From a virus, in the IMG/VR virus record IMGVR_UViG_3300032224_001676, positions 63,787 to 127,786 of that record: DNA of 64,000 nt. One strand, given 5' to 3'. This document shows, one piece after another, positions 16,382 through 43,982 of this stretch. The notes under the pieces were generated by a model that saw only the letters and a program-made list of their open reading frames with translations, had not been told where the DNA came from and ran no database searches. Numbering within the stretch: position 1 is the first letter of the stretch; each line of letters opens with the position of its first letter. A program made the translations under genes and the position numbers.

Positions 16382-16431
16382 GTGATGTTGTTATTTAATT
16401 TTGTTATAAATATCAAAGGAGGGTGTAAAAG

Positions 16432-18894: not shown

Positions 18895-18916
18895 GTTATA
18901 TGTTTAGTATAAATAT

Positions 18917-19819
18917 TTAAATTTGAGCACCTGGGGGTAGAAAATTTACACTTTCTATTGATGAAACTGCTTCACCGGTAAACGTTAATATGTTTTTATT
19001 AGAATATTTTTTAATTGAATTAAGATCTTTTTGTAGAATTTCAGGAACTATATATCCATTTATTTTTATGGTGAATGTACTTTTAGCTATACGTTCTGTA
19101 CCTTCTGTCATTTCTATATTAGTACTAAAAGTATCAATCATAGTTTTAAATTTAAAACGAGATAGATCACCCCAGTAAGCATCTGATGCGTATTCTATGG
19201 CTTCTACTATTTTATTTAATTGTTCCATATAGTAGGTAAATACAGCACATTCGTAAGTTATTGTTACGTAATCTGGGACTACAGTGACGTAATATACTTT
19301 TTCGGGTCTAATGTTATTTTGAACATTAAATTTATCATAAGCATTTTGAGTAGAATATGATTTTTGAGTAATAGCATAATTGTATGGAATATTAGCGTCT
19401 AATTTATTAGCTACACTTCTATTTTTTTCAACACTTTCTCTTTTAAACATTAAAAGTGGAGCCATTATTCTACCATTAGCATCTCTATAATAACCATCTT
19501 TTTGAAATGATTTCCAACGCTCAGGTGAACCATATATTATAGGTACAGGAAGTCTTTGTCCATTTTGTACTACAGTTGGGCTTATAACATTTTCAAAATA
19601 ATACATTACAGCCCAGTCTATATCTTCTAACCCGACTGAAAAAGGTTTTGTAGTATCGTCTTTAAATGATACTTGTTCTCCTCTATTTAAACCCTCAGCT
19701 TTATTTGGGTTGCCAATAGCTTGAAAACCCTCAGCACCTGGAGGTGGCTGGTATGGTCTCTGTTGAGAAATACTTATTTCTCTTTGAGTTTTAGGTATAG
19801 GTTTTCTTATTTCAGTCAT
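18917..19819 (-). CDS. Tail terminator / sheath stabiliser (gp15-like)
   Basis: VPIIYGSPERW...VPDYVTITYE...LNKIVE; follows the neck genes. Confidence 0.7.
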   Translation of the reverse strand: MTEIRKPIPKTQREISISQQRPYQPPPGAEGFQAIGNPNKAEGLNRGEQVSFKDDTTKPFSVGLEDIDWAVMYYFENVISPTVVQNGQRLPVPIIYGSPERWKSFQKDGYYRDANGRIMAPLLMFKRESVEKNRSVANKLDANIPYNYAITQKSYSTQNAYDKFNVQNNIRPEKVYYVTVVPDYVTITYECAVFTYYMEQLNKIVEAIEYASDAYWGDLSRFKFKTMIDTFSTNIEMTEGTERIAKSTFTIKINGYIVPEILQKDLNSIKKYSNKNILTFTGEAVSSIESVNFLPPGAQI

Positions 19820-20328
19820 TATAATCTAGTTTTTATCAAGTTAAGTCTATCAGCAGGCACATAGTGAGTTTGACATACTATAGATACGTCCCATCCAAAA
19901 TTACTTAATCCTGGGTTTAATGGATTAGGATTATATGGGTAGTCTGGGTTTTTACCCGCAAAGTATTGGATTTCGTTTGTGTTGTCTATTTCAAAATAAC
20001 TTTCTTGATATAGAATTATATCTCCAACTTCAGGGTGAGCATTAGCTTGAACTAAATCGTCTCTTAAAAATGCTACATCAATGCTCCATCCAAAATCTGC
20101 TCCAAATTCATTTATTGGAGTTGTATTGTCTTTTACTGTTATCAAAGAATTTAATAATACAGGGCCGTCATAAAATTTACCCCCTGCTGCTTCTCCATAC
20201 ATGTTAACAGTAGTTTTATCTAAAATAAATTTGTACAAGGCACATTGTTGAGTGATAACATCCCACAATAACTCGCGGTTAACGTGCCTAAACATTGATA
20301 TATCTCTTGCCGAGCCAAATATTGCCAT
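19819..20328 (-). CDS. Neck / head-closure protein (gp14-like)
   Basis: NMYGEA...PEVGDIILY...YFEID; position between gp13-like and gp15-like genes. Confidence 0.65.
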   Translation of the reverse strand: MAIFGSARDISMFRHVNRELLWDVITQQCALYKFILDKTTVNMYGEAAGGKFYDGPVLLNSLITVKDNTTPINEFGADFGWSIDVAFLRDDLVQANAHPEVGDIILYQESYFEIDNTNEIQYFAGKNPDYPYNPNPLNPGLSNFGWDVSIVCQTHYVPADRLNLIKTRL

Positions 20329-21488
20329 TATCCTATATAAATTACCATTGGTACGTTCATAATTTCTTGTTTTCTAAAATCACTTTCTTGAGCACGTCTT
20401 TCAAGTAATGATTTTTGAGATGTATCATCAAAGTATAATCTTAATCTTTCTATTAACGCCGCTCTATCCGCGGTAGCTGAAGCTAATAAATCAGCTTGGT
20501 TAAGAGTCATATTTTGATCTGGGATAGGTACAGTGCTATATTTTCCACGTACGTATCCTAAAATTTCTTTAACTAAAGCTAAAGTGTATTCAAATATCCA
20601 TTGTCTTCCAACTGAATTGATTTGAGAATACACTGGGTTGCCATAAGGGGCGTTTGATGGATTTGTAACTCCTCCCGGGGTTACTAATCCATTATTTAGA
20701 CGTTCTGATGATTTGATATAATTAAACCAAATATAACCACCATGAGTTTCATTGTCAGTGAAAGGTATAGGGAATATTCGTAGTTTATTATTAATTAATT
20801 GGAATGAATAATTAGATAAACGAACTTGGTTACTCATTTCAATTGCTTGAAGAGTAGACATATCATATGATAATGGCATCATTAAATAACCAGTACCATA
20901 TCCACTACCTAACATTCCTCCACCATATATACCAGCTGATGGTACTCCTCCTAACCCTGCAAATCCACCGTATGGGGCATACATTTGATTAATAGCAGGT
21001 AATGGATAGTAAAATACTTGTTTAACCTCTATTCCTCCAGTGATTCCATTACTTGCTGCCCATTGTGCTAAATCATAATCTTGAATACTAGAAGTTAAAG
21101 CTACTGATCCACTGTAGTAATTCACGTTACCTCCTACTCCTGCTTCTTCACCATATTGTTGAGACAATCTAACAATATTAGACATATTAGGAGTGATAAG
21201 AGCGTTATTTAAATTTGATCCTGTAGAAGTTCCTTCTAAAGATAATAAATTATCTCTAACTTGGTAAGCGTATAATTCATTACCATAAGTTGTAATTGCT
21301 TCTTCAAAAGCAGCATAAAAGTTTACGTCTTGTAATTCAACCTCCATAATAGGATATCCCAATCTAAGAGCACAAAACGTAGTTACTTTATCAGCATCAA
21401 TTTGAAACTGGTAATCGTAGTCGTAAAATCCAAATGGGGTTAGCCCTGGGTAGAATGACGAACTGCCAGGATATATAGGGATATTCAT
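20328..21488 (-). CDS. Neck protein / head-tail adaptor (gp13-like)
   Basis: LRLGYPIMEVEL...WIFEYTLALVKEILGYVRGKY...MTLN motifs. Confidence 0.8.
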   Translation of the reverse strand: MNIPIYPGSSSFYPGLTPFGFYDYDYQFQIDADKVTTFCALRLGYPIMEVELQDVNFYAAFEEAITTYGNELYAYQVRDNLLSLEGTSTGSNLNNALITPNMSNIVRLSQQYGEEAGVGGNVNYYSGSVALTSSIQDYDLAQWAASNGITGGIEVKQVFYYPLPAINQMYAPYGGFAGLGGVPSAGIYGGGMLGSGYGTGYLMMPLSYDMSTLQAIEMSNQVRLSNYSFQLINNKLRIFPIPFTDNETHGGYIWFNYIKSSERLNNGLVTPGGVTNPSNAPYGNPVYSQINSVGRQWIFEYTLALVKEILGYVRGKYSTVPIPDQNMTLNQADLLASATADRAALIERLRLYFDDTSQKSLLERRAQESDFRKQEIMNVPMVIYIG

Positions 21489-21531
21489 ATGTTAGGTTTT
21501 GTTATAAATATGCAAAACTATATGAATCGTA

Positions 21532-21765
21532 TTATTCAGGAAGAGGGGGTTCTATAGTTGGGGGTTCAATAAGAGTATCTTCAGTTATGTTTTCTATTAT
21601 AGTAGGTTCCTGGTATTGTTGATTGTATGTTTCTAAAGCGATAATGAGTTCTTCTTTAGTATCATAAAAAAACAGAATTGGTTGACCTGTTGTTATTTCA
21701 TCACTATCTTCCATTGAACCATAATGGAAAACATCTATTTCATTTGTTGCTAAATACCATTTCAT
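21532..21765 (-). CDS. Small acidic hypothetical protein
   Basis: 77-aa ORF coupled to the stop of the upstream gene. Confidence 0.55.
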   Translation of the reverse strand: MKWYLATNEIDVFHYGSMEDSDEITTGQPILFFYDTKEELIIALETYNQQYQEPTIIENITEDTLIEPPTIEPPLPE

Positions 21766-23669
21766 TATATTTGTCCTCCATCTACTATTGTCCAGTTATT
21801 AGGTGCTGATACTAATTTCGCTCTTGAAGCTGATGCTGCTATTGTGTAGTTTATGTTGTTAAAGCTAATGGAAATATTGGGTTTAACAGGTCTAGAAGCC
21901 CATCCTATTAATAATGCGTCATAATTTGAAGATGAATAGTTCGTGTTTGATTTACCACCCATAAATGAGCCAGCTGCGGTTACATTGCCTATATTCCAGT
22001 TTGTTAAAGGTTGGTTAAAACCATAAGCATATTGGAACATAGTGTCTATAGTAGTAACGTTAGTTGTCACCCAATCTTTAATTGAATTACTATCTCCATT
22101 ATTAAATGAACTTGATTTTCTTGGAGGTGGTAATCCCTTAAACATTCCTTGGAAGTTTGTAGCCTTACTTAAATTCCAACTACCTAAATTAGAATTAAAA
22201 TCAGGTTGACCATTAAACATAAAAGATAAATTACTAGCACTAATTGGATTCCATGTACTTAAATTTTGGTTAAATACTCCATCTTCGTTATTTGGTGTGG
22301 TTGGTATATTAAGGAATTGTTGAAAATTTGTAACTTTAGATACATCCCAATTTCCAATAGGTTGATTAAAATTAGTTTGAACATTAAACATATAATACAT
22401 ACTATTAACATTAGATGTGTTCCAATTATTAATTGATGGGCTACCACCGTTGTTAAATGATCCTGTTCCATACCCACTATTCATACCAAACATACCAAGC
22501 ATAGTTGTCACTTTACTTGTATCCCAAGTACCTATGTTTTGATTAAAATAAGGTGACATAAAAAATACATAACTCATGTCAGTGACGTTAGAAGTATTCC
22601 AATTTTTAAGAGTATCAGCCCCACCATTATTAAATACTCCTGTTTTAATATTTGAACCTCCAAATAAACCATACATATTTCGTACTTTACTTACATCCCA
22701 TGATCCTACATCTTGGTTAAATGAATATGCTGAATAAAACATTTGAGTCATATCTACTGTATTAGAAGTATTCCAATTATTTAATGGTTGATTAAATAAA
22801 GAAGCTGAGTTAAACATGAATGACATACTTATTGCAGATACAGTATTCCAATTATTTAAAGGTTGGTTAAATGCTGTATCCATATAAAACATATAGTTAA
22901 AAATACTAGCACTGCTTACATTCCAACTTCCAATTGGTTGATTAAATTGGTCATTATATAAAAATATTTGACTAAAGTTTTGTACCTTACTTGTATCCCA
23001 ATTTTTAATAGAATCACTTCCTCCATTATTAAAAGCATGTTTAACCCCTAACAAACCACAAAATGTATTAGTCATATTAGTAACATTGCTAGTATTCCAA
23101 TTGCCTATATTTTGATTATATCTATATGTAGTATAAAAGGTTTGGGACATATTGTTTACTTTACTTGTATCCCATTCATTAGCTCTACTAATACTAACTA
23201 ATAAAGAACATGATCTAAAAGTAGCATTTAATACTGGGCCATAAGCAGTACTTGAAGAATACGGAGTGTAAAGATTAGGTGTATCTGATATGTTGTTTAA
23301 GGTTAAAGCATCACACCCATAAAATTGAGCAGGTAATGAGGTTAATTTTAATCCACCCCATTGAGATATATTAATTAGCTTTCGTCTATCTCCTGTATTG
23401 CTAAATTGAAATCCATTAATATATCCACTCATTGTGACATTATATGTCCCGGCAGTAGCATAAGAATGAGTTAAAGCGGATTGAAAAGAAGACGATATTG
23501 AACTACTAGTGTTATCACCCCAATACACCATAAAATTATATAATCCACTACCAGTTAAAGGTATTCTAATTTGGTTAGTAGCACTTGAATTTGAGGATGT
23601 ATTATCCGTCTTCCATGTTGACATGAAAGGTTTAGGTTTTGAGTTAATTATAGTTCTACCGCCTCTCAT
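21765..23669 (-). CDS. DUF285 / bacterial surface-repeat (about 25-aa) protein with a PKD-like N-terminus
   Basis: Repeats of FNQxIGxW(D/N)TSxVTxMxxMF; N-terminal YWGDNT...HSYATAGTYNV. Confidence 0.8.
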   Translation of the reverse strand: MRGGRTIINSKPKPFMSTWKTDNTSSNSSATNQIRIPLTGSGLYNFMVYWGDNTSSSISSSFQSALTHSYATAGTYNVTMSGYINGFQFSNTGDRRKLINISQWGGLKLTSLPAQFYGCDALTLNNISDTPNLYTPYSSSTAYGPVLNATFRSCSLLVSISRANEWDTSKVNNMSQTFYTTYRYNQNIGNWNTSNVTNMTNTFCGLLGVKHAFNNGGSDSIKNWDTSKVQNFSQIFLYNDQFNQPIGSWNVSSASIFNYMFYMDTAFNQPLNNWNTVSAISMSFMFNSASLFNQPLNNWNTSNTVDMTQMFYSAYSFNQDVGSWDVSKVRNMYGLFGGSNIKTGVFNNGGADTLKNWNTSNVTDMSYVFFMSPYFNQNIGTWDTSKVTTMLGMFGMNSGYGTGSFNNGGSPSINNWNTSNVNSMYYMFNVQTNFNQPIGNWDVSKVTNFQQFLNIPTTPNNEDGVFNQNLSTWNPISASNLSFMFNGQPDFNSNLGSWNLSKATNFQGMFKGLPPPRKSSSFNNGDSNSIKDWVTTNVTTIDTMFQYAYGFNQPLTNWNIGNVTAAGSFMGGKSNTNYSSSNYDALLIGWASRPVKPNISISFNNINYTIAASASRAKLVSAPNNWTIVDGGQI

Positions 23670-23670
23670 C

Positions 23671-24984
23671 TTATTGAGTTATCCAGTATTCTACTCTTGT
23701 TCCTTTAACCCATTCAGCATAAATTATATTTAGTGTATTTGGAACATAAACACCATTACTTACTACTACCCATCCTGCTGGGGTTGATGGAGCTACTGAG
23801 TTGTTATGGTATATTTTTTGTACTATTCCGGTTTTAGCTCCTGTTAAATTATCAGTTATATTCCCTGTCCCTGGTACATCCCATTCATTATAAACTTGGT
23901 TGGAAGTAAATGATACTACTGTTCCTGTTGTAGCAGAAGGAGTAGTTAATACTTGATTATTATTCCAATTAAATGAAGAACCTGTAGTATTAATTGATCC
24001 GGTTACAGTTATATTTTGGTTTAGTATATTTAAATAGGATGCTGTTAAGGCAAATGATGAACTTAATGCTTGGTTAGTGTAGGAGGATGTAGTTGTTAAT
24101 AAATCTTGATTTGGATTATATCTTAAACCTCCATCTACTTGAATACTGCCTGGTCCTGATGTATCAACAAATAAAACGTTGTGTTGTAAATTTTGTGTTG
24201 ATATACTAGTAGATACTGAAAGTGCCACAGATGATGTTAAGGCAAATGATGAACTTACTGCTTGTGATATATAAGAAGATGTTTGGGCTATAGTCACATA
24301 AGAAGCTGTTTGAGCAGTTACTATATAAGAAGCCGTTTGCGCGTTTTGTATAAATGAGGCTGTGGATGAGAATGAAGAACTTATTGCTTGTAATATATAA
24401 GAAGCTGTTTGAGCAGTTTGTACATAGGATGCTGTTTGCGCTATTGTAACATAAGACGCGGTCATTGCTTCTGATGCTTTTATAGCCCAACTTGATGTGC
24501 CTTGTAATGATCCTGTTATTGAAGGAGCATTCAAACTTCCAGTAATAATATAACCGTTCATATTTAAATTACCAGCAGCTGTTAAAGTACGAGATCCTGT
24601 TTCTATTCTCCATGCTGAAGTTAGCACATTACTGTCCCAACTAGTTACTAAATATAATCCAGCATTATCTACCCAAACATAGTTTTGACCATTATTAGAT
24701 CCCAATTTTGACCGCCCGTCAGGGCCAGCTGTCATGTCTATACTAGGACCAGTTGTAGTTATTGATGATCCACTATTAAAATATATATTACCCGATATGT
24801 TTAAAGAATTAGATATTAATAAACTACTTGTTGTAGACCAAATATCTCCATTTATGTTAGTAAATATAGAATCACCTTGAGGTCCTGGTTGTCCTTGAGG
24901 TCCTGGGGTAGATACTTGTATAACACGTGTTCCATCTTGTTGAACAGTGATAGTATTGGTGGATGTATTTACGTTTACTGACAT
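23671..24984 (-). CDS. Fibre-like virion protein with collagen-like and TASY repeats
   Basis: PGPQGQPGPQGD and repeated AQTASYV units. Confidence 0.65.
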   Translation of the reverse strand: MSVNVNTSTNTITVQQDGTRVIQVSTPGPQGQPGPQGDSIFTNINGDIWSTTSSLLISNSLNISGNIYFNSGSSITTTGPSIDMTAGPDGRSKLGSNNGQNYVWVDNAGLYLVTSWDSNVLTSAWRIETGSRTLTAAGNLNMNGYIITGSLNAPSITGSLQGTSSWAIKASEAMTASYVTIAQTASYVQTAQTASYILQAISSSFSSTASFIQNAQTASYIVTAQTASYVTIAQTSSYISQAVSSSFALTSSVALSVSTSISTQNLQHNVLFVDTSGPGSIQVDGGLRYNPNQDLLTTTSSYTNQALSSSFALTASYLNILNQNITVTGSINTTGSSFNWNNNQVLTTPSATTGTVVSFTSNQVYNEWDVPGTGNITDNLTGAKTGIVQKIYHNNSVAPSTPAGWVVVSNGVYVPNTLNIIYAEWVKGTRVEYWITQ

Positions 24985-25385
24985 TATAGTACTGTTACTT
25001 GATCACTTAAACTAACTTGGCCTTCTAATAATCTTACTGTATATGGACAATTACTACCAGAATATATTTCTAAATCATAATAAGCTGTACTAAAATTAAG
25101 CATTGAGGATGTACATGATGAAATATATATTCCAATAGAACCACTAGAGGGTGGTGTTGTACCATTACTCCCACTAAAATTTAAACCAGTGCCATCAGCA
25201 TTTAAAGAACTAGATAATGTAAGATATACTGTACGATTAGGAACAGAAGCATAGTTAGATGCTATTTGCATTTTACCTGAGTAATTAGCTAAATCAACAG
25301 GTGTACCTGATGAGTCTAGATATTGTACTTCAAAATTAGTAGTTGCTCCTTGTTCTATTACAAAAGAATATCTTCCTGCGGCCAT
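24984..25385 (-). CDS. Virion structural protein (BppU-N-like attachment domain)
   Basis: FVIEQGATT...PVDLANYSGKMQI...YYDLEI...RLLEGQV. Confidence 0.55.
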   Translation of the reverse strand: MAAGRYSFVIEQGATTNFEVQYLDSSGTPVDLANYSGKMQIASNYASVPNRTVYLTLSSSLNADGTGLNFSGSNGTTPPSSGSIGIYISSCTSSMLNFSTAYYDLEIYSGSNCPYTVRLLEGQVSLSDQVTVL

Positions 25386-25454
25386 GTTAATGTTTAACTA
25401 TAAATATTAGAAAGTTTTAAATTAATTTAAAAATACTAAATAAACTAATTATTT

Positions 25455-26378
25455 TTACCAACTTGCTATTATAACTAAACCACCACCACCATCACCACCG
25501 GCACCACCTGGGGTTCCACCACCACCTCCGCCACCACCAGATCCTATACCACCATTACCTCCTTTACTTCCAGTACCAGTAGTACTACTATTTCCTCCAC
25601 TTCCACCCCAAGATAAAAATGGTTTAAATATATTATTTCCATTAACTCCACTTCCAGAAGTTAATTGAGCAGGTAATAAACCATCTGGTAAATCTAAAGG
25701 AAGAGACAAAGAAGCAGAGCCTGGTGTACCTTGTACTCCTGCTGCTACTCCTGCACCGCCCCCACCTCCGGTTACAGATGTAGTAGATGCAATAGTATTT
25801 CCTGCTCCACCACTAGTTGAACCGTTTCCACCTCCGTTACCTCCAACATATTTTGTTTGGGATACAAAAGAATAATGACCTATATTGGCATCAGAATTAA
25901 CTCCAACTGCTCCACCAGAACCTCCAGCACTTGCCAACCCAACAAGACCACCTCCACCAGCATTAGCATATATTATAACATTAGGTATAGTGAAATAATC
26001 ACTTAATCCTACACTTGCATATACAAAACTATCTGATCCACCACTTCCACCTCCACTTGTTCCTCCTTTTCCTGTATTTCCTACAATTATTGAGAGTTTA
26101 TCGGGTAAAAACATAGCTGGGATTAGTATTGATTGTTGGGCACCACTTGCTCCACCACCTCCACCACCATTATTACCTCCTAAGGCTGATGTAAAACCAG
26201 CAGCTCCTCCTCCTCCACCTCCTATAGCCCATATAGCTACCATCTGTACGCCAGGAGGTTTATTCCATATGTATGGACTTTGTATAGTACCTATCCCAAA
26301 ACTTGGGGTAGAAAATATTTGAACATCTCCACTAAACTGTGGAGGTAAAAAACTATAATCTCTAGAATTCCCGTACAT
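25455..26378 (-). CDS. Glycine-rich fibre protein (paralog A)
   Basis: WNKPPGVQMVAIWAIGGGGGG...GGDGGGGLVIIASW. Confidence 0.7.
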   Translation of the reverse strand: MYGNSRDYSFLPPQFSGDVQIFSTPSFGIGTIQSPYIWNKPPGVQMVAIWAIGGGGGGAAGFTSALGGNNGGGGGGASGAQQSILIPAMFLPDKLSIIVGNTGKGGTSGGGSGGSDSFVYASVGLSDYFTIPNVIIYANAGGGGLVGLASAGGSGGAVGVNSDANIGHYSFVSQTKYVGGNGGGNGSTSGGAGNTIASTTSVTGGGGGAGVAAGVQGTPGSASLSLPLDLPDGLLPAQLTSGSGVNGNNIFKPFLSWGGSGGNSSTTGTGSKGGNGGIGSGGGGGGGGTPGGAGGDGGGGLVIIASW

Positions 26379-26382
26379 AATA

Positions 26383-27348
26383 TTACCAACTTGCTATTAT
26401 AACTAAACCATCTCCACCATTTCCACCTGTACCACCTGTGGTTCCAGCTCCTCCACCTCCACCCCCACTTCCAATACCACCTTTTCCTCCTCTTCCTCCC
26501 GCTCCTGTATCAAAACTTCCTCCACCTGTACCACCAAAAGACATAAATGGTTTGAATCTTGTTATACCATCTATACCATTACCACCATTTGTTGTACCAC
26601 CTGCTATATATGAAACAACAGGAGTTAAAGCAAAATCTGGGCCGTCAAATGCTGCATTTAAAGATATTGCGCCCCCAGCAATTGGAGTTGTAGTAGCTAT
26701 TCCTCCCCCTCCTGTTCCTTGGCCTGTAGAGTTAAGTATAAATTGGTTAGTAATAGCACCAGCAGCACCTCCAAGTTGAGAACCACCTGCTAATCCAACT
26801 AATCCAACTTGGAATTTATAGAATATAGATGAAAAATAAAAATGTCCAACACTAGCTGCTGTAGTAATAGTGGGTACGGTTCCTGCTATACCAGCAGCTG
26901 TTCCTGATCCAGCACCTCCTCCTCCAGGTTGGGCAATATTTGATTGTAATATTAAGTTGGGGATCGAGGTTCCGGCTGTTAAACCTACACCTGAAGCAAC
27001 ATAAGAATTTATCCCGGCTGCTCCAGCATTGTTAGCTATACCTCCAGCACCGCCTGCTCCTACAGAAACACGAAGTACATCTGGTAAATGGTGGGCAAAG
27101 AATAAAGCTGAGGCTGCACCTGATGATGCTCCACTTCCTCCACCTCCACCAGCCGCTCCTGATGCTCGAGTGAAGCCACCGCCACCACCACCTCCACCTC
27201 CTACGCACCACATATAAACCATAGTAGCACCAGAGGGTTTGTTCCATGTTTGCCATTGGGTGTTTGTTGTACCCATAGAAAAAAACATTTGAACATCTCC
27301 TGTGAATTGAGGAGGTAAAAAACCATAATCTCTTGAACTTCCGTACAT
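26383..27348 (-). CDS. Glycine-rich fibre protein (paralog B)
   Basis: Shares the MYGxSRDYxFLPPQF start and GLVIIASW end with paralog A. Confidence 0.7.
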   Translation of the reverse strand: MYGSSRDYGFLPPQFTGDVQMFFSMGTTNTQWQTWNKPSGATMVYMWCVGGGGGGGGGFTRASGAAGGGGGSGASSGAASALFFAHHLPDVLRVSVGAGGAGGIANNAGAAGINSYVASGVGLTAGTSIPNLILQSNIAQPGGGGAGSGTAAGIAGTVPTITTAASVGHFYFSSIFYKFQVGLVGLAGGSQLGGAAGAITNQFILNSTGQGTGGGGIATTTPIAGGAISLNAAFDGPDFALTPVVSYIAGGTTNGGNGIDGITRFKPFMSFGGTGGGSFDTGAGGRGGKGGIGSGGGGGGAGTTGGTGGNGGDGLVIIASW

Positions 27349-27368
27349 AACTTTATATAGTTAAAGAA

Positions 27369-27827
27369 TTAATAATCACCTCCAAATACTGTTGCTTGCC
27401 ACTGTTGGTTAGTTGTTTGTGCTACATGTTGTGACACTAGAATATACCTAGAGGCAGGAACAGCAATGTTAAGTGGGATTTCATAGTAGTTAGTAGCGGC
27501 TGTACTGTTGGCTGTTGAAATTGCCGGTACTGAGATTTCCGCTAATAAAGATGTATTAGTAGATGTTGGTGTTCCTGATCCTGTAGAACTTAAAAATACG
27601 CGTAATGTAGTCGCTACAGAATTGACTCCAGCGGCTGATGCTACTGTGTTGAAACGAACACGTTGTATAAAACTTCCGCTTGCGCCTGAGGTAAATACTA
27701 AAAATTGATCTGTACCAATAGCATTAGTTGCTCCTCCATCTGATCTTGGATTTGTTGCGGTGGTTGTTATCTTTCCAGAACCTACATTTGGGGTTAAAGT
27801 GTAAATTGGGTTAAAATTTTGAGCCAT
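27369..27827 (-). CDS. Hypothetical virion protein
   Basis: 152-aa S/T-rich ORF inside the fibre cluster, ending FGGDY. Confidence 0.55.
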   Translation of the reverse strand: MAQNFNPIYTLTPNVGSGKITTTATNPRSDGGATNAIGTDQFLVFTSGASGSFIQRVRFNTVASAAGVNSVATTLRVFLSSTGSGTPTSTNTSLLAEISVPAISTANSTAATNYYEIPLNIAVPASRYILVSQHVAQTTNQQWQATVFGGDY

Positions 27828-27855
27828 ATTTTTTATTTTATTATAATTATATTGT

Positions 27856-29529
27856 TTAAAAACCTGAAAATAGTGTGTTTACTTTTGCTAATGCTACAAC
27901 TTGGCCTTGGATATTAGATACACTACTACCTCCACCTCCACCATTCATAGCATAAGATGCTGTTAAAGCGTAAGATGCAGAACCTTGTAGTGAACCAGTA
28001 ATACTACCATTTACTCTTAATGAACCTGTAATTTGAAATTGAGATCCTGATGCAAAAACTAGGTTTGATCTAGCTGAAGTGCTAGTACCATTTCCTATTA
28101 TAAAAGCGTTTTGAGCTGATGAGGATTGGTTGAGTAAACCTTGAACATGTTGGCCATCACCGTTTGCTATTGTATAGTACCCTTCAGCGTGTGAATATTG
28201 TCCGTTTGCTGTTGTATATAATCCTTCAGCATGTGAGTATGGACCATTTGTTATTGTGAGATATCCTTCAGCATGTGAATTTTGTGCATTTGCTGTTGTA
28301 TAATATCCTTCAGCATGAGAACCTATTCCTGATACTGCTGTTGTTGTTGTGAGCATTCCTTCAGCGTGTGAAGCATCACCGTATGCTGTTCCTCCAGGAA
28401 CAATTACTTCACCATCACTATCATAAGTATATCCTCCTTCTGCGTGGGAGCCTAATCCTTGAGCTAATGTGGAAACTCCTTCAGCATGTGAGTAATATCC
28501 ATTTGCCACAGTAACATAACCTTCAGCATGTGAAGCAAAACCACCTACTATTGTGAAATTTCCTTCAGCATGTGAATACTGCCCATTTGCTGTTGTATAT
28601 ACTCCTTCAGTATGAGAAGTAAAACCATTTGCTATTGTATAGTATCCTTCAGCATGTGAGTAGTATCCATTTGTTGTTGTAGTACTACCAACTCCCTCAG
28701 CATGTGAATAATCTCCTCTTGCTATTGTACTGTTTCCTTCAGTGTGTGAATATTGTCCGTTTGCTATTGTGAAATATCCTTCAGCATGTGAATATGATCC
28801 TGATGCTTTATTTAATTGCCCTTCAGCATGTGAATAAATTCCTGATGCTGTATTTTGGAATCCTTGAACATGAGAAAATAAACCTGATGCAAGTGATGCT
28901 GAGGCTTGATTAAATATTCCTTGAATTGAAGTAGAACCAGATACATTTAATGAACCAGTTATAATATTTGTTCCAATTATAGTTTTACTTCCAGAAATAA
29001 ATACGGAACCTGTAATTGTTTTAGTTCCTATTAAGGTATTTGAACCTGTTATTATAAGCGACCCTGATATAATTTCATTTCCTATAAATGTGTTTGAACC
29101 TGTTGTGGCAAAAGATCCTGTTTGAGTATTAGTTACAAATGAACTTGTAGCACTATTTAAAACATAGTTTGGAGCTAAAGACGCAGTAGCAGCATAAGAA
29201 GCACTTAATACTGTTCCTACAATAGCAGAAGCAGTTACATATGACGCGGTTTGAGCATAAGATGCTGTTCCTTGTAATGAACCTGTAAACCCAAGAGTAG
29301 AAGTTGTAGAACCAGTTATTATTAATGATCCTGTTATAATTGCAGAACCGGTATATGGAAATGCTGCCCCACTTCCTCCTCCAGAACCTGTAAATTCTTT
29401 TACAATGTTACCTGATCCACTACCATAAAATAGTTTTCCATCTTTAGTATTGATGGCTAATTCACCCTGCTGTAATGAAGAGGGAATCACTCCTGATCCG
29501 GTACTATTTTTTATTATTATTGTAGCCAT
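27856..29529 (-). CDS. Second SHAEG-repeat fibre/adhesin
   Basis: Fibre N-terminal motif IIIKNS...LQQGELAINTKDGKLFYG, ITGS repeats, then about 15 SHAEG repeats. Confidence 0.8.
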   Translation of the reverse strand: MATIIIKNSTGSGVIPSSLQQGELAINTKDGKLFYGSGSGNIVKEFTGSGGGSGAAFPYTGSAIITGSLIITGSTTSTLGFTGSLQGTASYAQTASYVTASAIVGTVLSASYAATASLAPNYVLNSATSSFVTNTQTGSFATTGSNTFIGNEIISGSLIITGSNTLIGTKTITGSVFISGSKTIIGTNIITGSLNVSGSTSIQGIFNQASASLASGLFSHVQGFQNTASGIYSHAEGQLNKASGSYSHAEGYFTIANGQYSHTEGNSTIARGDYSHAEGVGSTTTTNGYYSHAEGYYTIANGFTSHTEGVYTTANGQYSHAEGNFTIVGGFASHAEGYVTVANGYYSHAEGVSTLAQGLGSHAEGGYTYDSDGEVIVPGGTAYGDASHAEGMLTTTTAVSGIGSHAEGYYTTANAQNSHAEGYLTITNGPYSHAEGLYTTANGQYSHAEGYYTIANGDGQHVQGLLNQSSSAQNAFIIGNGTSTSARSNLVFASGSQFQITGSLRVNGSITGSLQGSASYALTASYAMNGGGGGSSVSNIQGQVVALAKVNTLFSGF

Positions 29530-30289: not shown

Positions 30290-30609
30290 TATAATTCTAC
30301 TTTTATGTTTACTCCCAATACTTCTTTAGCGACTAGGGATACGTCCGATATACGTATTTTACGCTCTAGTATTTCTTTCGTTTCTTTGTATTCTTTACCT
30401 TCTACTTTACAAAGTAGTTTAATAAAACGTTTCTTTTTTTCCTTATCTTTAAAATAATCATCAGGTGCTTTACCAGCAGCCATTGCTTCTAGTAAATCTG
30501 TTATTAACGCACAATCATCCCATGTAAATGGATTTTTACTTTGATTAGGGAATGGGTTTGTATTCCATGCAAAATTTGCGTCTCCCCATTTAAATGGTAT
30601 CCTAGCCAT
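30289..30609 (-). CDS. Hypothetical protein
   Basis: 106-aa ORF with a Trp-rich N-terminus and stop/start overlaps. Confidence 0.6.
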   Translation of the reverse strand: MARIPFKWGDANFAWNTNPFPNQSKNPFTWDDCALITDLLEAMAAGKAPDDYFKDKEKKKRFIKLLCKVEGKEYKETKEILERKIRISDVSLVAKEVLGVNIKVEL

Positions 30610-30830
30610 TAAAACGTTCCCCCATTAATATATGATGATGTATATGAAAAAGAAGCAGTAGTAGCAAATGAAGCACTAGCTATTTTTCCTATAATAAAAG
30701 AGGCAGTCGCAGCAAATGAAGCAGTAGTAGAAAAAGATGACACAGAAGCATAAGAAGCACTAATAGCACTGTTAGCACTTTGGGCTTGCAAAGCTGATTT
30801 AGCAAATTGGCTTTGTCTAACTGTAGTCAT
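30609..30830 (-). CDS. Small Ala/Ser-rich virion peptide ending INGGTF
   Basis: ASFA repeats; preceded by the late-type motif at 30849. Confidence 0.55.
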   Translation of the reverse strand: MTTVRQSQFAKSALQAQSANSAISASYASVSSFSTTASFAATASFIIGKIASASFATTASFSYTSSYINGGTF

Positions 30831-30856
30831 ATTGGATTAATTATCTGTTATAAATA

Positions 30857-31543
30857 TTAATCTCTATATTCTTGGTAAAGTTTTAAAATAGGTTCAACTA
30901 TTTCATGGCGATGATTAGTTTTTAAAGTGATTACTTTTACTCCTTTAATTTCAGATTCTAAACGAGTAAAAAACCCAATACCACTATCTTTCTTTTGTTT
31001 TAAGTCGGTTTGAGTTATGTCTCCACAAAATACCATTTTCCCACCTTTACCTAAACGACCTAACATCATTTCAGTTTGACCATGGGTAATATTTTGACAT
31101 TCATCTACAATCACAAAACAATTAGGGAATGTTCTACCTCGCATAAACGCAAAAGGTACAATTTCAATTTGATTTTCAGCTACCATTTTGTCTACTTTAT
31201 CTTTATCATAAAGCAAATGTAAGTTAGCATATATAGGAGCTAACCAAGGATCCATTTTTTCTTTTAGATCGCCTGGTAAGAATCCAATATCTTCTTTAGC
31301 CACAGTAGGTCGTGTGATTACAATTTTTTCAACTTCTCTTTTAAAAACCATGTCTAATGCTATTTGACATGCAACTAATGTTTTACCTGATCCTGCCATT
31401 CCTTTTATTAAGGTAACAGGATTTTCTAGAATTAATTGTTTTGCTTCTTTTTGCTCATTATTAAGTTCTATTTTAAATTTAATAGGATTTTTAGGTTTTC
31501 TTTTGTTTTGAAATACCTCATCATTGTAATCGTTTGAAGCCAT
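30857..31543 (-). CDS. phoH: PhoH-family ATPase
   Basis: GMAGSGKT, ITRP, IGFLPGDLKEKMDPW, FMRGRTF, DECQN, GDITQTD, HRH. Confidence 0.95.
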   Translation of the reverse strand: MASNDYNDEVFQNKRKPKNPIKFKIELNNEQKEAKQLILENPVTLIKGMAGSGKTLVACQIALDMVFKREVEKIVITRPTVAKEDIGFLPGDLKEKMDPWLAPIYANLHLLYDKDKVDKMVAENQIEIVPFAFMRGRTFPNCFVIVDECQNITHGQTEMMLGRLGKGGKMVFCGDITQTDLKQKKDSGIGFFTRLESEIKGVKVITLKTNHRHEIVEPILKLYQEYRD

Positions 31544-31544
31544 A

Positions 31545-32264
31545 TTATTTGTATATTAGTTTAACTAACGTGTCTATCCCCGCTTCTACGTGAGTTGTGT
31601 CGGGATGTATTAATTCAAAGTTATAACGCTCATCTAACGGTAATACCAAATCTACTTGACTGCCCCAACGTATTAAACTAAATCTTTCATTTTGGGTTAG
31701 ATAAGTATTTTGATATTTAACAAATGGAGCTATAACATCTACGTCTTCATCTGCTATTTGTATTAAATAGTAAGAGTAATCTAATGAAGGCGAATAAATT
31801 TCATTAAACATTCGCTCATTATTTTTTAAATAATCTAAATTATTAGGGTTAATAGCTTTATTTAAAATATCTTTTTCAAGTGCTAACATAGGTTTGTTAG
31901 TTGACTCTATACTTTCAATTGGATCATATTTTAATATACCCGAATATGGTATTCTATTAATATGAACATCATAAAATGACATAAATACACCAATTACAAG
32001 AGACGGAGTATCATATGTTGGATCGCACATCACATCTTGTAATGTATAATTTACACCTTTAATTTCTACAACTGGGTCTTTTGGGTTAGTTATAAACTTT
32101 TGGTATAAAATAGTTCCATCAGCTGGTGAAAAAAAGTATTCATTATTGATAAAATTGGTACGAGGTGGATCTCTAAAGAAAAAAGTATTTGAAAGATCAC
32201 CTGTAGGTAATTTAAGTAGTTCTTTTACATCACTGTCTAACCACTCTTCTAATGTTTTAGCCAT
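31545..32264 (-). CDS. Phosphatidylserine-decarboxylase-like pyruvoyl proenzyme with no membrane anchor
   Basis: FFRDPPR, SPADG, FMSFYDVHINRIP, NERM and IRWGS|QVDL self-cleavage motif. Confidence 0.8.
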   Translation of the reverse strand: MAKTLEEWLDSDVKELLKLPTGDLSNTFFFRDPPRTNFINNEYFFSPADGTILYQKFITNPKDPVVEIKGVNYTLQDVMCDPTYDTPSLVIGVFMSFYDVHINRIPYSGILKYDPIESIESTNKPMLALEKDILNKAINPNNLDYLKNNERMFNEIYSPSLDYSYYLIQIADEDVDVIAPFVKYQNTYLTQNERFSLIRWGSQVDLVLPLDERYNFELIHPDTTHVEAGIDTLVKLIYK

Positions 32265-32270
32265 AACTTA

Positions 32271-33185
32271 TTATAAAAGGATTTTATTTTGATCTACTCT
32301 GTTTAAGTGCATAACCATGCAACTTAAAGCAGCGCCACTTTTAGCGTACTCACTAATGTTAAAAAATACAGGTTCTAAACCTAATTTGTAACATATTTTC
32401 TCCATAAAGTCAATTTTTGCTTTCTCACCATCATACCATTCATGACCTTTATCTAATTCATGAATAAATGAACTACCTAAAACCATATTACCATACCGTA
32501 CAGCATTTGTAACATCATAATAATGAATATGTTCAGGTACGTCTATAATGTTAGTATACTGTTCTATTAACTTAATTTCTTCGGGTTCGTAGAAGTCGGT
32601 GCAAATTAATGTGTCTTCGCTTGTTAACGGGAATATAGAGCAATCTAAATGATATAAATAATCATCTACCATTTCTACTTTGATAATATTCATATCAAAG
32701 TTTTTCTCCATCCACTCATATGCTTTAATATCTGAGCGAATACCGTAACCACCGATGTAAACATTATCATGTAGGTATTTTAAATCTGCTTCACCTTCCC
32801 ATTTGTGTGGGCTAATGTAAGTATCATAACCCATCATATTAAAGAATTTTTCACCTACATATTCTTCACCTTGTCTTGGCTCTGAAGTATAATTAGATAG
32901 TAAAATAGTGTTTTTATCTGTGATATGGGGTAATTGTAGTCCTAAATTTGCTACATATACTTGATCTTGGAAATTGCCTTCATTAGGCAATAGATATACT
33001 AAGGCACCTGCAGATATAAAGTTATAAACATCCATAAACTGTTTATATGCTTTTCTTTTATCTACTTTTAATTCTTCGGGGCTTAGTTCTTGCATCCAAA
33101 TATTATTTGGATTAGATGTGTCTAATGTAAAAGGAAAATTCATTACATAAGACGGAACATTTAGTTGTGACGGGGTTTCTTTCAT
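32271..33185 (-). CDS. Amidinotransferase / arginine-dihydrolase-like (pentein) enzyme
   Basis: DQVYVANLG, RQGEE, WEGEAD, YHLDCSIFPL, EYAKSGAALSCM (Asp/His/Cys triad). Confidence 0.85.
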   Translation of the reverse strand: MKETPSQLNVPSYVMNFPFTLDTSNPNNIWMQELSPEELKVDKRKAYKQFMDVYNFISAGALVYLLPNEGNFQDQVYVANLGLQLPHITDKNTILLSNYTSEPRQGEEYVGEKFFNMMGYDTYISPHKWEGEADLKYLHDNVYIGGYGIRSDIKAYEWMEKNFDMNIIKVEMVDDYLYHLDCSIFPLTSEDTLICTDFYEPEEIKLIEQYTNIIDVPEHIHYYDVTNAVRYGNMVLGSSFIHELDKGHEWYDGEKAKIDFMEKICYKLGLEPVFFNISEYAKSGAALSCMVMHLNRVDQNKILL

Positions 33186-33252
33186 TATATACTTTATTTT
33201 AATATAAATATAAGTAAAGACCTACTAAATATAAAACATATATAAGAAAAAT

Positions 33253-33279
33253 AAAAAAAGGCCGGATAAAATCCGGCCT
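33253..33279 (-). terminator. Intrinsic terminator after the major capsid gene
   Basis: Minus strand AGGCCGGAT-TTT-ATCCGGCCT followed by a T-run. Confidence 0.85.
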
Positions 33280-33301
33280 CTTTTAAATTATAATACTAAG
33301 A

Positions 33302-34999
33302 TTATAGAGCGTTCAATCCGCTAACATAGATCTTACCATAGAATTCAGGACGTAACATCTTCTTAGCAAAGCGAGTCAATAAACCTTTACGTGGAGTGAA
33401 GGTGTTTGGATCGTACACTAGAGGAGTCATGATCAATGGAATGTATGGAGCGAATACAGCACCTGCTTCTAAGAACTGAGTTCCACGGAATCCTAATAAG
33501 ATTGTGTTTTCAGTCATATAAGGGTTTTTGTAAACTTTATAGCGACCGTTTAATTGGCCAGCTTTTTGTACACCAAACGCATATTCCATTTGAGCCACAT
33601 CACCATTGTTGCTAGAAGCAAATCCTGGGATTGATTCTAAAATTGTAGCTACAGTTGGAGAACATACTAAGAAATTTGCTCCACCACGCATTGTCAACTG
33701 GTGAATTTTGTTACTTAACTTTTGGATCTTAGTACCAAGAGTTTGGAACCATTGACCTTGAGTGTTGTAATATCCGTTTTGAGTAGTTGAAGTTGGGAAA
33801 TCAAATCCGTTTGTGTTTGCTGGGTTATAAACACCGTTGTTCAATACTGTCCAGTACTCAGTACCTGCAGCTGCGTCTTCGATCAACATATCTAAGATTT
33901 CAAGGTCAATCTCTAAAGAGATATACTCGCTCATAATGTTAGTCAATTCTGCTTCAGCATCCAAGTTTTGGTAAGCATTTAAATCTTGAGCAAACTCAGG
34001 AGTCCAAACTGCTTTTAACTTTTTAGTCTTAGCTGTGATAGCTTGTGACTGCATGCTAACGTTAATCTCTGGGATAACGATAGTAGAGTTACTTTCAACG
34101 TTAGGTGTTGAGTAAGAAACTGCTGGAGTATCTTCGAAATCACCACGCTTATTATCAGATGTTAACTTGTTATACTCAACAACGTAAGATCCAGTACCGC
34201 TTTGGAAGAAATCGTTTGCAGTTGAACCAGTTACATAGAAAGTAATTGTGTTGTTAGTGTAATCATAAGTTGTAAACGCTGGTAAGTTTTTAGAAGTGTT
34301 ATTACTAGAGTAAGAACCAGATACTACTACGAAACCACGAACAGCATCGATATCGAAGTTAGCTAAAGTTGTAGTAGCGCTAGTTACAACAAGTTGAATG
34401 ATTTGGCTAGCAGCAGCAGAAGCTGATAAAGATGAATCGAAGTTCACGTTAGACCAAGACGCTACACGTGCAGTTGCAGATGAACCAGAAAGTACAGTTA
34501 CAGACTGAGAGAATTGGTTGGTAGAATATGTGAAACGACCAGCACCATACAAACCACCAACTGGGTTAGGAGTTGCGAATGGATATTGGCTTCCAGTAGT
34601 ACCATATACAGATCCGTTTTTGTTAAATGGGTTCTTATCGGTACCATATTGGAAATCTAAATAGAATACAAGACCAGAAGGTAAGTTCATTGGTTGAACG
34701 CTAACGAATTCTTTCGCTGCGATTTGTCCAAATACCTTACGTACTAATGGCAATGCGATTCCAGCCCACTGCTCACCTTGTCCTACTGTGAAAGTAGCAC
34801 CGGTTCCAGTTTGAGAGCTTTCGATTACTAATTGTTTTGCTTGGTTTTCAAGCATAAGGGCCATGTTATTTTTGTTAGTTTCGTTGTCGATACCTTCTAA
34901 CAAACCTGTTTTGGTCCATTTGTTTGCTAACTTGGCTGAATCACTTTGAAGTGACTTCCATGGATTAGCAGACTCTAATAGGGATTGAATTGAGTTCAT
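33302..34999 (-). CDS. Major capsid protein (T4 gp23-like)
   Basis: LPLVRKVF, VSVQPMNLPSGLVF, AKTKKLKAVWTPEFAQDL, YAPY-like FAPYIPL, FTPRKGLLTRF. Confidence 0.97.
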   Translation of the reverse strand: MNSIQSLLESANPWKSLQSDSAKLANKWTKTGLLEGIDNETNKNNMALMLENQAKQLVIESSQTGTGATFTVGQGEQWAGIALPLVRKVFGQIAAKEFVSVQPMNLPSGLVFYLDFQYGTDKNPFNKNGSVYGTTGSQYPFATPNPVGGLYGAGRFTYSTNQFSQSVTVLSGSSATARVASWSNVNFDSSLSASAAASQIIQLVVTSATTTLANFDIDAVRGFVVVSGSYSSNNTSKNLPAFTTYDYTNNTITFYVTGSTANDFFQSGTGSYVVEYNKLTSDNKRGDFEDTPAVSYSTPNVESNSTIVIPEINVSMQSQAITAKTKKLKAVWTPEFAQDLNAYQNLDAEAELTNIMSEYISLEIDLEILDMLIEDAAAGTEYWTVLNNGVYNPANTNGFDFPTSTTQNGYYNTQGQWFQTLGTKIQKLSNKIHQLTMRGGANFLVCSPTVATILESIPGFASSNNGDVAQMEYAFGVQKAGQLNGRYKVYKNPYMTENTILLGFRGTQFLEAGAVFAPYIPLIMTPLVYDPNTFTPRKGLLTRFAKKMLRPEFYGKIYVSGLNAL

Positions 35000-42382: not shown

Positions 42383-42401
42383 TTGTTTTTATTTATAAAT
42401 A

Positions 42402-43982
42402 TTAAAATAACCAATTTAAATCCTCGTGTTGTCCATTAACATTAAAATTATATGGATTATTTGGACTAGCTGTATTATACGCACCTAAAGGAGAATTCCT
42501 AGTTGAAGTGATATTATTTAACATATTTCGCGTAAGATCTAAACTTTGTTGTCTAAATTTCAAAGATGTGTCTCTTAAATACATAGCAATACCAAAACTC
42601 ATTACTAAATCGTCGTTATAACCCGACTGAGCTTCAGGTCGACCATTTTTCCATATAAACACTTTCATTTCCTCTAATAACCGTTTAGACTGTATAGTAA
42701 CGCTTTTATCGCCGATGTACTCCCTAAATTTATTAATTACTAGTGGTCTTGTTCTCATAGACATTGTAAAACCAGGAACGATGTTGTCTGGGTTTTCAAA
42801 CTTATTAAAATATGTTTCAGCTGTGATATTAGTGTCAGATTTAGGAGAAAAATATAGATTTCTATATTCTCTTTCTTGTATGGCGTCTAATGTAGCCCAC
42901 CCTATGTTAGCGTTTTCAACTGCTAATAATGCTTGATTATATTCTGTAGCTATAGCTACTAAAAAGTAACCAAATTCTTTAGGCGATAATTGTCCTTTAT
43001 ATTCTGCTACTTGAGTGTTAGTTGCTATATCTATAACATGAAATGCTGAAAAGTCTTTACTGTCTCCACGAGCGACGTCGGCTGTAACTAAATAATCTCG
43101 TGTATAATCAGCTGGTTCCCAGATCCATAAATTTTGGTCTGCTCCTCTTCTTTCTAATGGTTCTTTAATAGTAGTTTGACCAATAAATTCTAACCATTCA
43201 CTATAAAATACTATATCTCCAGAAGTACTAAAATCACAATCACATTCTTGGGCTGCTATTCTAGGATCACCTAATAATTCATCTTGTTTTTTCCTCCATT
43301 CCTCATTTCTTTCGGGGTGAACAAACCAAGGTAATTTAATAGGTAAAAAATCATTTTCTTGAGATTCTGCTCTAACCCATGTTTGATGAAACCAATTACC
43401 CGTACCATAAGGAGTAGACAATACAATTGCTCCACCACCAGTTGCTAAGGTTTGTTGAGCTGATGCCCATATTTCACCAATTCCTTCGATAAATGCAGCC
43501 TCATCGACCAATAGCAAAGATACTGCTTCTGATCGACCTGCATCACTACTCGCAGATGTAGCTTTAATTTGTGATCCGTTATTTAAACGTAATGATAGTT
43601 TATTATTTTCGTCTGCTGGTATTTTTAACCATGAAGGGAGGTTATCAAACATGAATTTAACCTTTGTAACCATGTTACGAGCAGTTTCTTGCTTAGTAGC
43701 TATACATAATACGTTTTTATCTTTATGGAACAACATAAGCCATAAAGAATAACCAGCAGCTAATGTTGATATACCTAATTGACGTGATTTTAATACTATA
43801 CTATATGGGTTATCTCTCCATAAATGTAATACTTTACTTTGGAATGGATAAAGATTAAAGTGTATTCTACCTCTTTGTGGGTGTTGAATAAAACAGTATT
43901 TGTTCATAAAGTGCGCCGGATCAGTGGCGCACTTTACAAACTCTTCACGAATTATCTCCCTAATATTTGGGGATTCACTCAT
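42402..43982 (-). CDS. Terminase large subunit (T4 gp17-like)
   Basis: LKSRQLGIST (Walker A), LLLVDEAAF (Walker B), STPYG, ADVARG, NDDLVMS nuclease motifs. Confidence 0.95.
   Translation of the reverse strand: MSESPNIREIIREEFVKCATDPAHFMNKYCFIQHPQRGRIHFNLYPFQSKVLHLWRDNPYSIVLKSRQLGISTLAAGYSLWLMLFHKDKNVLCIATKQETARNMVTKVKFMFDNLPSWLKIPADENNKLSLRLNNGSQIKATSASSDAGRSEAVSLLLVDEAAFIEGIGEIWASAQQTLATGGGAIVLSTPYGTGNWFHQTWVRAESQENDFLPIKLPWFVHPERNEEWRKKQDELLGDPRIAAQECDCDFSTSGDIVFYSEWLEFIGQTTIKEPLERRGADQNLWIWEPADYTRDYLVTADVARGDSKDFSAFHVIDIATNTQVAEYKGQLSPKEFGYFLVAIATEYNQALLAVENANIGWATLDAIQEREYRNLYFSPKSDTNITAETYFNKFENPDNIVPGFTMSMRTRPLVINKFREYIGDKSVTIQSKRLLEEMKVFIWKNGRPEAQSGYNDDLVMSFGIAMYLRDTSLKFRQQSLDLTRNMLNNITSTRNSPLGAYNTASPNNPYNFNVNGQHEDLNWLF

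Follow-up and report, generated by a model that had tools for sequence, protein, structure and literature searches.

A linked pentein and phosphatidylserine decarboxylase-like gene pair in T4-like phages and bacteria: a candidate two-enzyme route from arginine to putrescine

The nearest characterised relatives of the first protein considered here are ArgZ of Synechocystis (Sll1336) and AgrE of Anabaena (Alr4995), whose N-terminal pentein domain (PDB 6JUY-6JV1 and 6LRF-6LRH) provided the sole solved pentein matches. The DNA under study, called the window in the following, is a stretch of 64,000 nucleotides which forms the second half of one 127,786-base virus record (IMGVR_UViG_3300032224_001676); it carries a pentein gene directly followed by a gene for a protein of the phosphatidylserine decarboxylase (PSD) family, and this pair is the subject of the present report. 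ArgZ, AgrE and the phage pentein have in common the motifs D-x-V-F/Y-x-A-N-x-G, R-x-G-E, F/W-E-G, G-Y-G-x-R-S and Y-H-L-D as well as a C-terminal catalytic cysteine. While ArgZ and AgrE are proteins of about 700 amino acids with a further C-terminal part, the phage pentein stands alone with 304 amino acids, and it is paired with a decarboxylase of the PSD fold, a pairing which is not known for ArgZ and AgrE.

The second protein compares best with the short-type PSD/ASD enzymes such as Escherichia coli PSD (6L06, 7CNW-7CNZ), with which it shares the fold and the self-cleavage set D49, H101-x-N-R and G201-S202. Unlike these enzymes, it has no membrane segment, carries D172, D231, E130 and H225, and is tied to a pentein. 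Two fungal proteins of 350-480 amino acids, Ao-ADC1 from Aspergillus oryzae and PsiD from Psilocybe, likewise have a soluble PSD fold and decarboxylate free amino acids via a pyruvoyl group; their substrates are arginine and tryptophan, respectively, and a pentein partner is not known for either. Ao-ADC1 (9JER/9JF5) has been described since 2024 as a soluble arginine decarboxylase of the PSD fold (reviewed in PMC12904898). Virus-encoded polyamine enzymes, including pyruvoyl ornithine and arginine decarboxylases derived from S-adenosylmethionine decarboxylase (AdoMetDC/SpeD), have been compiled by Li et al. (2023, PNAS, PMC9992855). As with the pair proposed here, these are phage genes whose pyruvoyl enzymes turn ornithine or arginine into diamines, with the idea that phages top up polyamines in this way, but the decarboxylases have the AdoMetDC fold and not the PSD fold. 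The main text of that paper does not use the words phosphatidylserine, Campylobacter, Bacteroides, amidinotransferase or dihydrolase, and the pair is not catalogued there. No paper on the pair was found in a literature search which left out subscription journals, supplements and about 1.7 million PMC articles, nor was ornithine decarboxylation by a PSD fold found reported in the literature searched.

The two genes most plausibly represent a polyamine route of phages and bacteria built from two repurposed enzyme families. All in all, the module most plausibly turns arginine into a small cationic amine, in the simplest case putrescine. If true, this would be a new putrescine route bypassing three host enzymes, and prokaryotic proteins of the PSD fold would gain a new class of substrates. 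It would also correct thousands of annotations as "phosphatidylserine decarboxylase", "amidinotransferase" or "DDAH", which are now taken as lipid or creatine metabolism in studies of auxiliary metabolic genes. Members of the two families are found in abundant environmental T4-like phages, in phages infecting gut Bacteroides or Campylobacter, and in many bacteria.

Linkage of the two genes in phages and bacteria

Genes for a gp23-like capsid protein, a gp20-like portal, a sheath, a prohead protease and a T4-type terminase mark the virus as a T4-like myovirus. The record is 78% complete according to CheckV, the window has a GC content of about 32%, and the minus strand carries nearly all genes (for positions see Table 1). 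An earlier note on this DNA, written from the sequence alone, had placed the pair behind the capsid gene and a terminator. Both open reading frames (ORFs) were found on the minus strand as described, with the spacer of 6 nucleotides (nt) between them and with all quoted peptide motifs, namely YHLDC (residues 178-182) and KSGAALSC (282-289) in the pentein, and FFRDP (29-33), DVHINRIP (99-106) and WGS (200-202) in the PSD-like protein. The upstream gene proved to match Gp23, and the stem with its T run was located at 33284-33254. A PhoH gene starts 1 nt past the stop codon of the PSD-like gene; the three genes are referred to as the cassette.

A scan of IMG/VR yielded 193 confirmed relatives, 80 of which were kept for locus counts. 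In 76 of these 80 loci the pentein match ends at most 12 bases from the start of the PSD-like gene, and the other four are truncated, with the PSD-like gene as their first. A PhoH gene comes next in 78 loci, three of them with an insert of about 0.57 kb before it, and the other two end too early; the capsid gene lies upstream in 75. In a collection of cultured phages the PSD-like gene occurs in 45 records and the pentein in 47, with the same 40 among the records listed for each. The genes adjoin in all three Bacteroides phages listed, and Campylobacter Fletchervirus has kept both at a distance of about 43 kb.

The same pair is found in bacteria. When one genome per prokaryotic species was scanned with an alignment of 11 sequences as query, 34 loci with close full-length homologues of the decarboxylase (42-53% identity) were obtained. 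Named carriers are Streptoalloteichus, Kutzneria, Allokutzneria, Saccharothrix, Nocardia, Longimycelium and Xenorhabdus; metagenome-assembled genomes with the gene are labelled Verrucomicrobia, Acidobacteria, Gammaproteobacteria, Latescibacterota and others. A pentein lies within 2 kb of 33 of the 34 homologues (30 full-length, three cut by a contig end), L094 alone being without one. Beside the 46 other PSD loci, which comprise one contig-end fragment and 45 loci of ordinary PSD types with no more than 38% identity, no pentein was seen. At E values up to 1e-5, the two families have about 1,900 and 2,000 relatives in a protein collection clustered at 90% identity. The two genes form a genuine module, linked and conserved over a wide range of genomes, and the objection which the earlier note had raised against its own proposal, that the genes might not be linked in related genomes, has failed.

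Relatives and residues of the two proteins

In PHROG both proteins fall into families without an assigned function, the pentein into PHROG 12759 (2e-62). Among NCBIfam models the pentein matched that of dimethylargininase at 6e-23 and that of arginine dihydrolase at 8.5e-21, in each case far under the curated cut-off. It reached 72 bits against a cut-off of 1025 for the bifunctional arginine dihydrolase, the second domain of which it does not have, and it did not pass the DDAH models either (81 against 300 bits in NCBIfam, 20.9 against 23 for Pfam DDAH_eukar). The PDB matches to ArgZ and AgrE had E values of 2e-15 with the single sequence and 4e-26 with a profile of 14 sequences, which bears out the likeness to arginine dihydrolases. 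The catalytic cysteine of ArgZ aligns with C289 of the pentein, and the asparagine which is carried as serine in PDB 6JUZ aligns with N80 in the A-N-x-G motif. DDAH has an aspartate where ArgZ and the pentein have this asparagine.

These matches bear on a distinctly unlikely alternative, according to which the pentein would be an amidinotransferase, or else hydrolyse its substrate in one step only, and the product of the pair would be some other small cationic metabolite. Amidinotransferases have the same Cys-His-Asp centre, and amidinotransferase is the name given to the Campylobacter phage protein in database annotation. However, no amidinotransferase model in Pfam or NCBIfam matched the pentein at E values up to 0.1, the best matches are to the hydrolases ArgZ/AgrE and DDAH, and the asparagine characteristic of ArgZ is conserved.

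Residue conservation in the pentein was counted across 150 relatives, 120 viral and 30 bacterial. The catalytic residues H179 (149), D181 (150) and C289 (147), which align with the ArgZ/AgrE motifs, are nearly invariant, and so are D74 (149), N80 (148), R104 (150) and R150 (147). Of these, D74, R150 and R104 would correspond to Asp73, Arg145 and Arg98 of human DDAH1, judged by the DDAH motifs D-x-x-F-x-E-D and G-x-S-x-R-T. In DDAH1, Arg145 binds the alpha-carboxyl and Asp73 the alpha-amino group, with Arg98 nearby (PMC10958460). Since an enzyme for agmatine would need no carboxylate binders like R104 and R150, the pattern argues for an alpha-amino acid as substrate, that is arginine and not agmatine.

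The second protein matches Pfam PS_Dcarbxylase (PF02666) over residues 27-217 with 73 bits (cut-off 22). An AlphaFold model built on 71 relatives had a mean predicted local distance difference test score (pLDDT) of 95.5 and a predicted template modelling score (pTM) of 0.92. The top Foldseek match of this model was E. coli PSD (4.5e-6, template modelling (TM) score about 0.5). PsiD (8X4Q/8ZIA; 5e-5 and 9e-5) and Ao-ADC1 (9JER/9JF5; 4e-3 and 5e-3) were found with TM scores of 0.52-0.55, and only 11-14% of their residues were identical to those of the PSD-like protein in the structural alignments. The family profile searched against PDB gave 1.9e-12 for E. coli PSD and only 0.003-0.004 for PsiD, and Ao-ADC1 was not matched at E values up to 1. 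A search of the ESM Atlas returned PSD-family clusters only.

From this it might seem that the gene codes for an ordinary phosphatidylserine decarboxylase which boosts phosphatidylethanolamine, with a functionally unrelated pentein at its side. The Pfam domain, the complete set of self-processing residues, the best structural match and the database annotation all fit such an enzyme. We nevertheless consider it highly improbable. The hydropathy of the protein (19-residue Kyte-Doolittle mean) peaks at 0.94 in residues 87-105, within the catalytic core, whereas values of at least 1.6 are attained by 25 of 29 ordinary short PSDs from bacterial loci, for the most part immediately N-terminal to the catalytic domain; 9 of the 71 family members also attain them. 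The protein stays far under the cut-offs of all 13 NCBIfam PSD/ASD models, the coupling to a pentein is restricted to the close homologues as given above, and its acidic residues follow a pattern of their own. The last point emerged when the 71 family members were aligned with 21 short PSDs of the ordinary kind. Both groups have in common the residues for processing and catalysis, namely D49, H101-x-N103-R104, N149, R151 and G201-S202; D49, H101, N103, R104, G201 and S202 are present in all 21 ordinary enzymes, and the predicted self-cleavage site G201-S202 together with D49 and H101 is kept in 61-70 of the 71 family members. Specific to the family are D172 (glycine in 18 of 21 ordinary PSDs), D231 (threonine in 19 of 21) and E130, which lies within an insertion missing from 13 of 21. 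At position 225 the family has histidine and 16 of the 21 ordinary PSDs have arginine or lysine. Such a shift from basic to acidic suits a cationic side chain in place of the phosphodiester of phosphatidylserine. By these features the protein is classed as a soluble member of the PSD family without a membrane segment and not as an ordinary lipid PSD, so that the earlier note was right both in seeing no hydrophobic segment before FFRDP and in setting the decarboxylase apart from lipid PSDs.

Some metagenomic relatives of the PSD-like protein show unusual architectures. In the Pfam scan P0243 and P0360 have an intein with a LAGLIDADG endonuclease, which in the sequence of P0243 interrupts the catalytic motif D-(V/C)-H precisely at the junction of the aspartate with the residue preceding the histidine. 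In P0249 (390 amino acids) a PSD-like domain is joined to an anti-CBASS Acb1 domain, and P0247 (1114 amino acids) combines PSD-like, VapB-like and ADP-ribosyltransferase domains; these two are either fusions or gene-calling artefacts and were not used as evidence.

The proposed route and its alternatives

It is tentatively proposed, with somewhat less than even confidence, that the cassette has all that is needed to make putrescine from L-arginine with two soluble enzymes, and that it is expressed late from a promoter of its own. In the first step the pentein would act as an ArgZ-type dihydrolase, with Cys289, His179 and Asp181 hydrolysing the guanidino group twice and yielding ornithine, CO2 and two NH3 from arginine. 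In the second step the PSD-family protein would cut itself between Gly201 and Ser202 into a beta chain of about 201 residues and a 38-residue alpha chain with an N-terminal pyruvoyl group. The latter would capture the alpha-amino group of ornithine as a Schiff base, and removal of the carboxyl group would give putrescine. During infection the diamine would be produced at the time of DNA packaging, to serve as a counter-ion or to be turned into spermidine. Bacteria would probably export the product, because in their genomes the pair adjoins the gene of an efflux pump.

The order with the dihydrolase first is favoured because the nearest characterised relatives of the pentein use free arginine and because D74, R104 and R150 are kept. 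No gene for AdoMetDC, spermidine synthase, a pyridoxal phosphate (PLP)-dependent ornithine or arginine decarboxylase or a CN-hydrolase was found in the phage record, although in a record of 78% completeness this does not prove their absence. If they are missing the two-gene route must be complete alone, as is possible with a dihydrolase but not with a plain deiminase.

The reverse order is unlikely, though by no means negligible. Here a PSD-fold arginine decarboxylase would form agmatine, and the pentein as an "agmatine dihydrolase" would release putrescine, thereby replacing agmatine deiminase and N-carbamoylputrescine amidohydrolase alone. Campylobacter and Bacteroides make putrescine via agmatine, one bacterial locus (L104) has two agmatine-deiminase-type genes after the module, and the acidic residues specific to the family would accommodate a guanidinium group no less than an amine. 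Moreover, a pyruvoyl arginine decarboxylase of the PSD fold exists in Ao-ADC1 (Foldseek 4e-3, TM 0.52; PMC12904898). Its likeness to the phage protein is at the level of the fold only, however, with 11% identity, and a pentein acting on agmatine is at odds with the near-invariant R104, R150 and D74, whose putative DDAH1 counterparts hold the alpha-carboxyl and alpha-amino groups, and with the use of free arginine by its nearest characterised relatives. The earlier note had seen a new activity of the PSD fold in either route to putrescine. This does not hold for the conversion of arginine to agmatine, since Ao-ADC1 is known; only decarboxylation of ornithine would be new.

For an ornithine decarboxylase of the PSD fold, a further independent origin of this activity would follow, distributed over abundant aquatic T4-like phages, phages of gut Bacteroides and of Campylobacter, and six or more phyla of bacteria, with late supply of counter-ions in the phages and coupling to an exporter in the bacteria; this wider picture is possible but doubtful. 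Polyamines are required for phage replication and serve as counter-ions of packaged T4 DNA. The late timing behind the capsid gene and this counter-ion role are consistent with a function in packaging, but are no proof of it.

Concerning bacteria, 31 of the 34 loci were scanned with Pfam using crude ORF calls, and the pair is present in 30. Of these 30 modules, 22 have an efflux transporter next to the pair, either a MatE exporter or a fused ABC exporter, and arginine or polyamine genes are near 8 of the 30 (Table 1). The prevalence of exporters of the multidrug or secondary-metabolite type as the most constant neighbours (22/30) agrees with the alternative already mentioned for the pentein, according to which another small cationic metabolite is made. 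Candidates would be guanidino or ureido amines such as homoagmatine, N-carbamoylputrescine or a guanidinylated diamine, serving as an exported signal, toxin or protectant in bacteria and perhaps in counter-defence in phages. Many of the carriers (such as Streptoalloteichus, Kutzneria, Saccharothrix, Nocardia and Xenorhabdus) are makers of natural products. The joining of PSD-like domains to Acb1 and to an ADP-ribosyltransferase would point the same way, provided that it is no gene-calling artefact. On the other hand, no core genes of nonribosomal peptide synthetases or polyketide synthases were seen beside the scanned modules, and the polyamine and arginine neighbours suit putrescine better, in keeping with our estimate that a different metabolite is distinctly unlikely.

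The gene neighbourhoods also bear on the idea that the pair acts on a bound substrate, in a serine- or arginine-bearing modification of DNA, sugar or protein tied to the 7-deazaguanine or nonulosonic-acid genes of the record. FolE, QueD, QueE and QueC accompany the pair here and in Campylobacter Fletchervirus, a NeuB-type sugar cluster is present in the phage record as well, and decarboxylation of O-linked serine is the native chemistry of PSD. Yet the Bacteroides phage SJC03 holds the pair without QueC, and the bacterial modules adjoin exporters and polyamine genes rather than genes for DNA modification or glycans, with a polysaccharide cluster at L090 as the sole exception, which makes a bound substrate improbable. 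A specific tie to 7-deazaguanine DNA modification was considered in its own right and rejected, since the deazaguanine decarboxylase proposed so far, DpdL, is a paralogue of QueD (PMC10516641) and SJC03 has the pair in the absence of QueC.

Several points weigh against the proposed conversion of arginine to putrescine via ornithine. The only soluble PSD-fold enzymes with known substrates take tryptophan (PsiD) or arginine (Ao-ADC1) and not ornithine. Both proteins stay far under the curated NCBIfam cut-offs: the pentein reached 74 bits against a cut-off of 450 for Arg_dihydro, and the best of the 13 PSD/ASD scores was 71 bits against 183. The argument from acidic residues comes from a sequence alignment, the putative correspondence with DDAH1 from motifs, and a fold of the pentein predicted from its single sequence had a pLDDT of 32, too low for use. 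Since the phage record is only 78% complete, further polyamine genes may lie in its missing part. With the crude ORF calls no exporter was seen in 8 of the 30 bacterial modules and no polyamine or arginine gene in 22 of them. Finally, housekeeping genes of polyamine synthesis do not usually have an exporter as their most frequent bacterial neighbour, and a secreted or toxic product would account for it at least equally well.

Transcription unit and further features of the record

The earlier note had placed the pair behind a late-type motif, and this was borne out: the motif ATATTTATA is enriched in the window and stands mostly shortly before start codons. It occurs 17 times, against 5.9 +/- 2.5 copies expected, and none of 100 shuffles reached 17. 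Fifteen of the 17 copies are on the coding (minus) strand (e.g. 16405-16413, 42394-42402 and 33203-33211). For 14 of these 15, by our own count, a start codon follows 7-32 nt further on, and the genes concerned include sheath, portal and fibre genes; the motif thus behaves like a late promoter element. As the next copy stands right after PhoH, the cassette looks like a single late transcription unit of pentein, PSD-like gene and PhoH; the copy at 30849-30857 is likely to be the start of the following unit and hence the end of the cassette. A second motif, approximately TTTGG followed after 15-20 nt by TTATCTTTATAGT, is found 5' of many small early-region genes in the first half of the record, and resembles a two-box promoter of the host type.

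Table 1: Features of the cassette, its surroundings and the rest of the record, and genes near the bacterial modules. Positions refer to the window, those with the prefix G000:C1 to the record; for bacterial modules the loci are given.
Feature	Position or locus	Strand	Details
Major capsid protein gene (gp23-like), unit upstream of cassette	33302..34999	-	Pfam Gp23 2.5e-76; PHROG major head protein 5.6e-73
Intrinsic terminator 3' of capsid gene	33254..33284	-	14-pair stem, 6 G-C pairs, 3-nt loop, T run
Late-promoter-like motif ATATTTATA	33203..33211	-	17 nt 5' of pentein ATG
Pentein, ArgZ/AgrE-like, 304 amino acids; predicted arginine dihydrolase	32271..33185	-	PDB and PHROG matches, kept catalytic residues
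Soluble PSD-family pyruvoyl proenzyme, 239 amino acids; predicted ornithine or arginine decarboxylase	31545..32264	-	Pfam PF02666, model, Foldseek, hydropathy, acidic residues
PhoH-like ATPase, third gene of tightly packed unit	30857..31543	-	Pfam PhoH 8.8e-63
Next copy of ATATTTATA, directly after PhoH	30849..30857	-	18 nt 5' of the start of ORF 30609-30830
MatE exporter (12 modules)	L093, L097, L098, L100, L101, L105, L106, L108, L110, L112, L115, L116		
Fused ABC exporter (10 modules)	L089, L091, L096, L104, L111, L113, L114, L119, L120, L121		
Spermidine-synthase-like gene	L091		directly 3' of pentein; argB also present
Two agmatine-deiminase-type genes	L104		after module
PotD/PotF-like binding proteins	L105, L112		
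ArgA and ArgE	L101		
Aminobutyraldehyde dehydrogenase and gamma-aminobutyrate (GABA) transaminase	L120		both over curated cut-offs
PLP decarboxylases of the ornithine/arginine/diaminopimelate family	L113, L119		
7-deazaguanine set	G000:C1:50211-54604		record's first half; MazG-like pyrophosphohydrolase, GTP cyclohydrolase I, HPRT-like phosphoribosyltransferase, thioredoxin, QueE-like radical SAM, QueD, QueC
Nonulosonic-acid-type cluster	G000:C1:about 18600-29500		NeuB, CMP-sugar transferase, PseB-like dehydratase, class-III aminotransferase, GNAT, GFO/IDH oxidoreductase, three glycosyltransferases
Family-B DNA polymerase ORF and NUMOD1 homing-endonuclease gene	G000:C1:41259-43676		polymerase ORF just 585 amino acids, endonuclease directly after
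Phage GroEL-like chaperonin	G000:C1:36766-38382		Cpn60_TCP1 1.6e-69
Repeat-rich fibre-like protein	27856-29529		557 amino acids, many SHAEG-type repeats
Fibre-like protein	21765-23669		634 amino acids, six DUF285 repeats
Fibre-like protein	16705-18894		729 amino acids, YadA-head repeats

The 7-deazaguanine set suggests that guanine is replaced in the DNA of this phage, as in Campylobacter Fletchervirus, and the phosphoribosyltransferase it contains hints at a route on the nucleotide level. The gene of the family-B DNA polymerase, with its short ORF, may be split by the NUMOD1 endonuclease.

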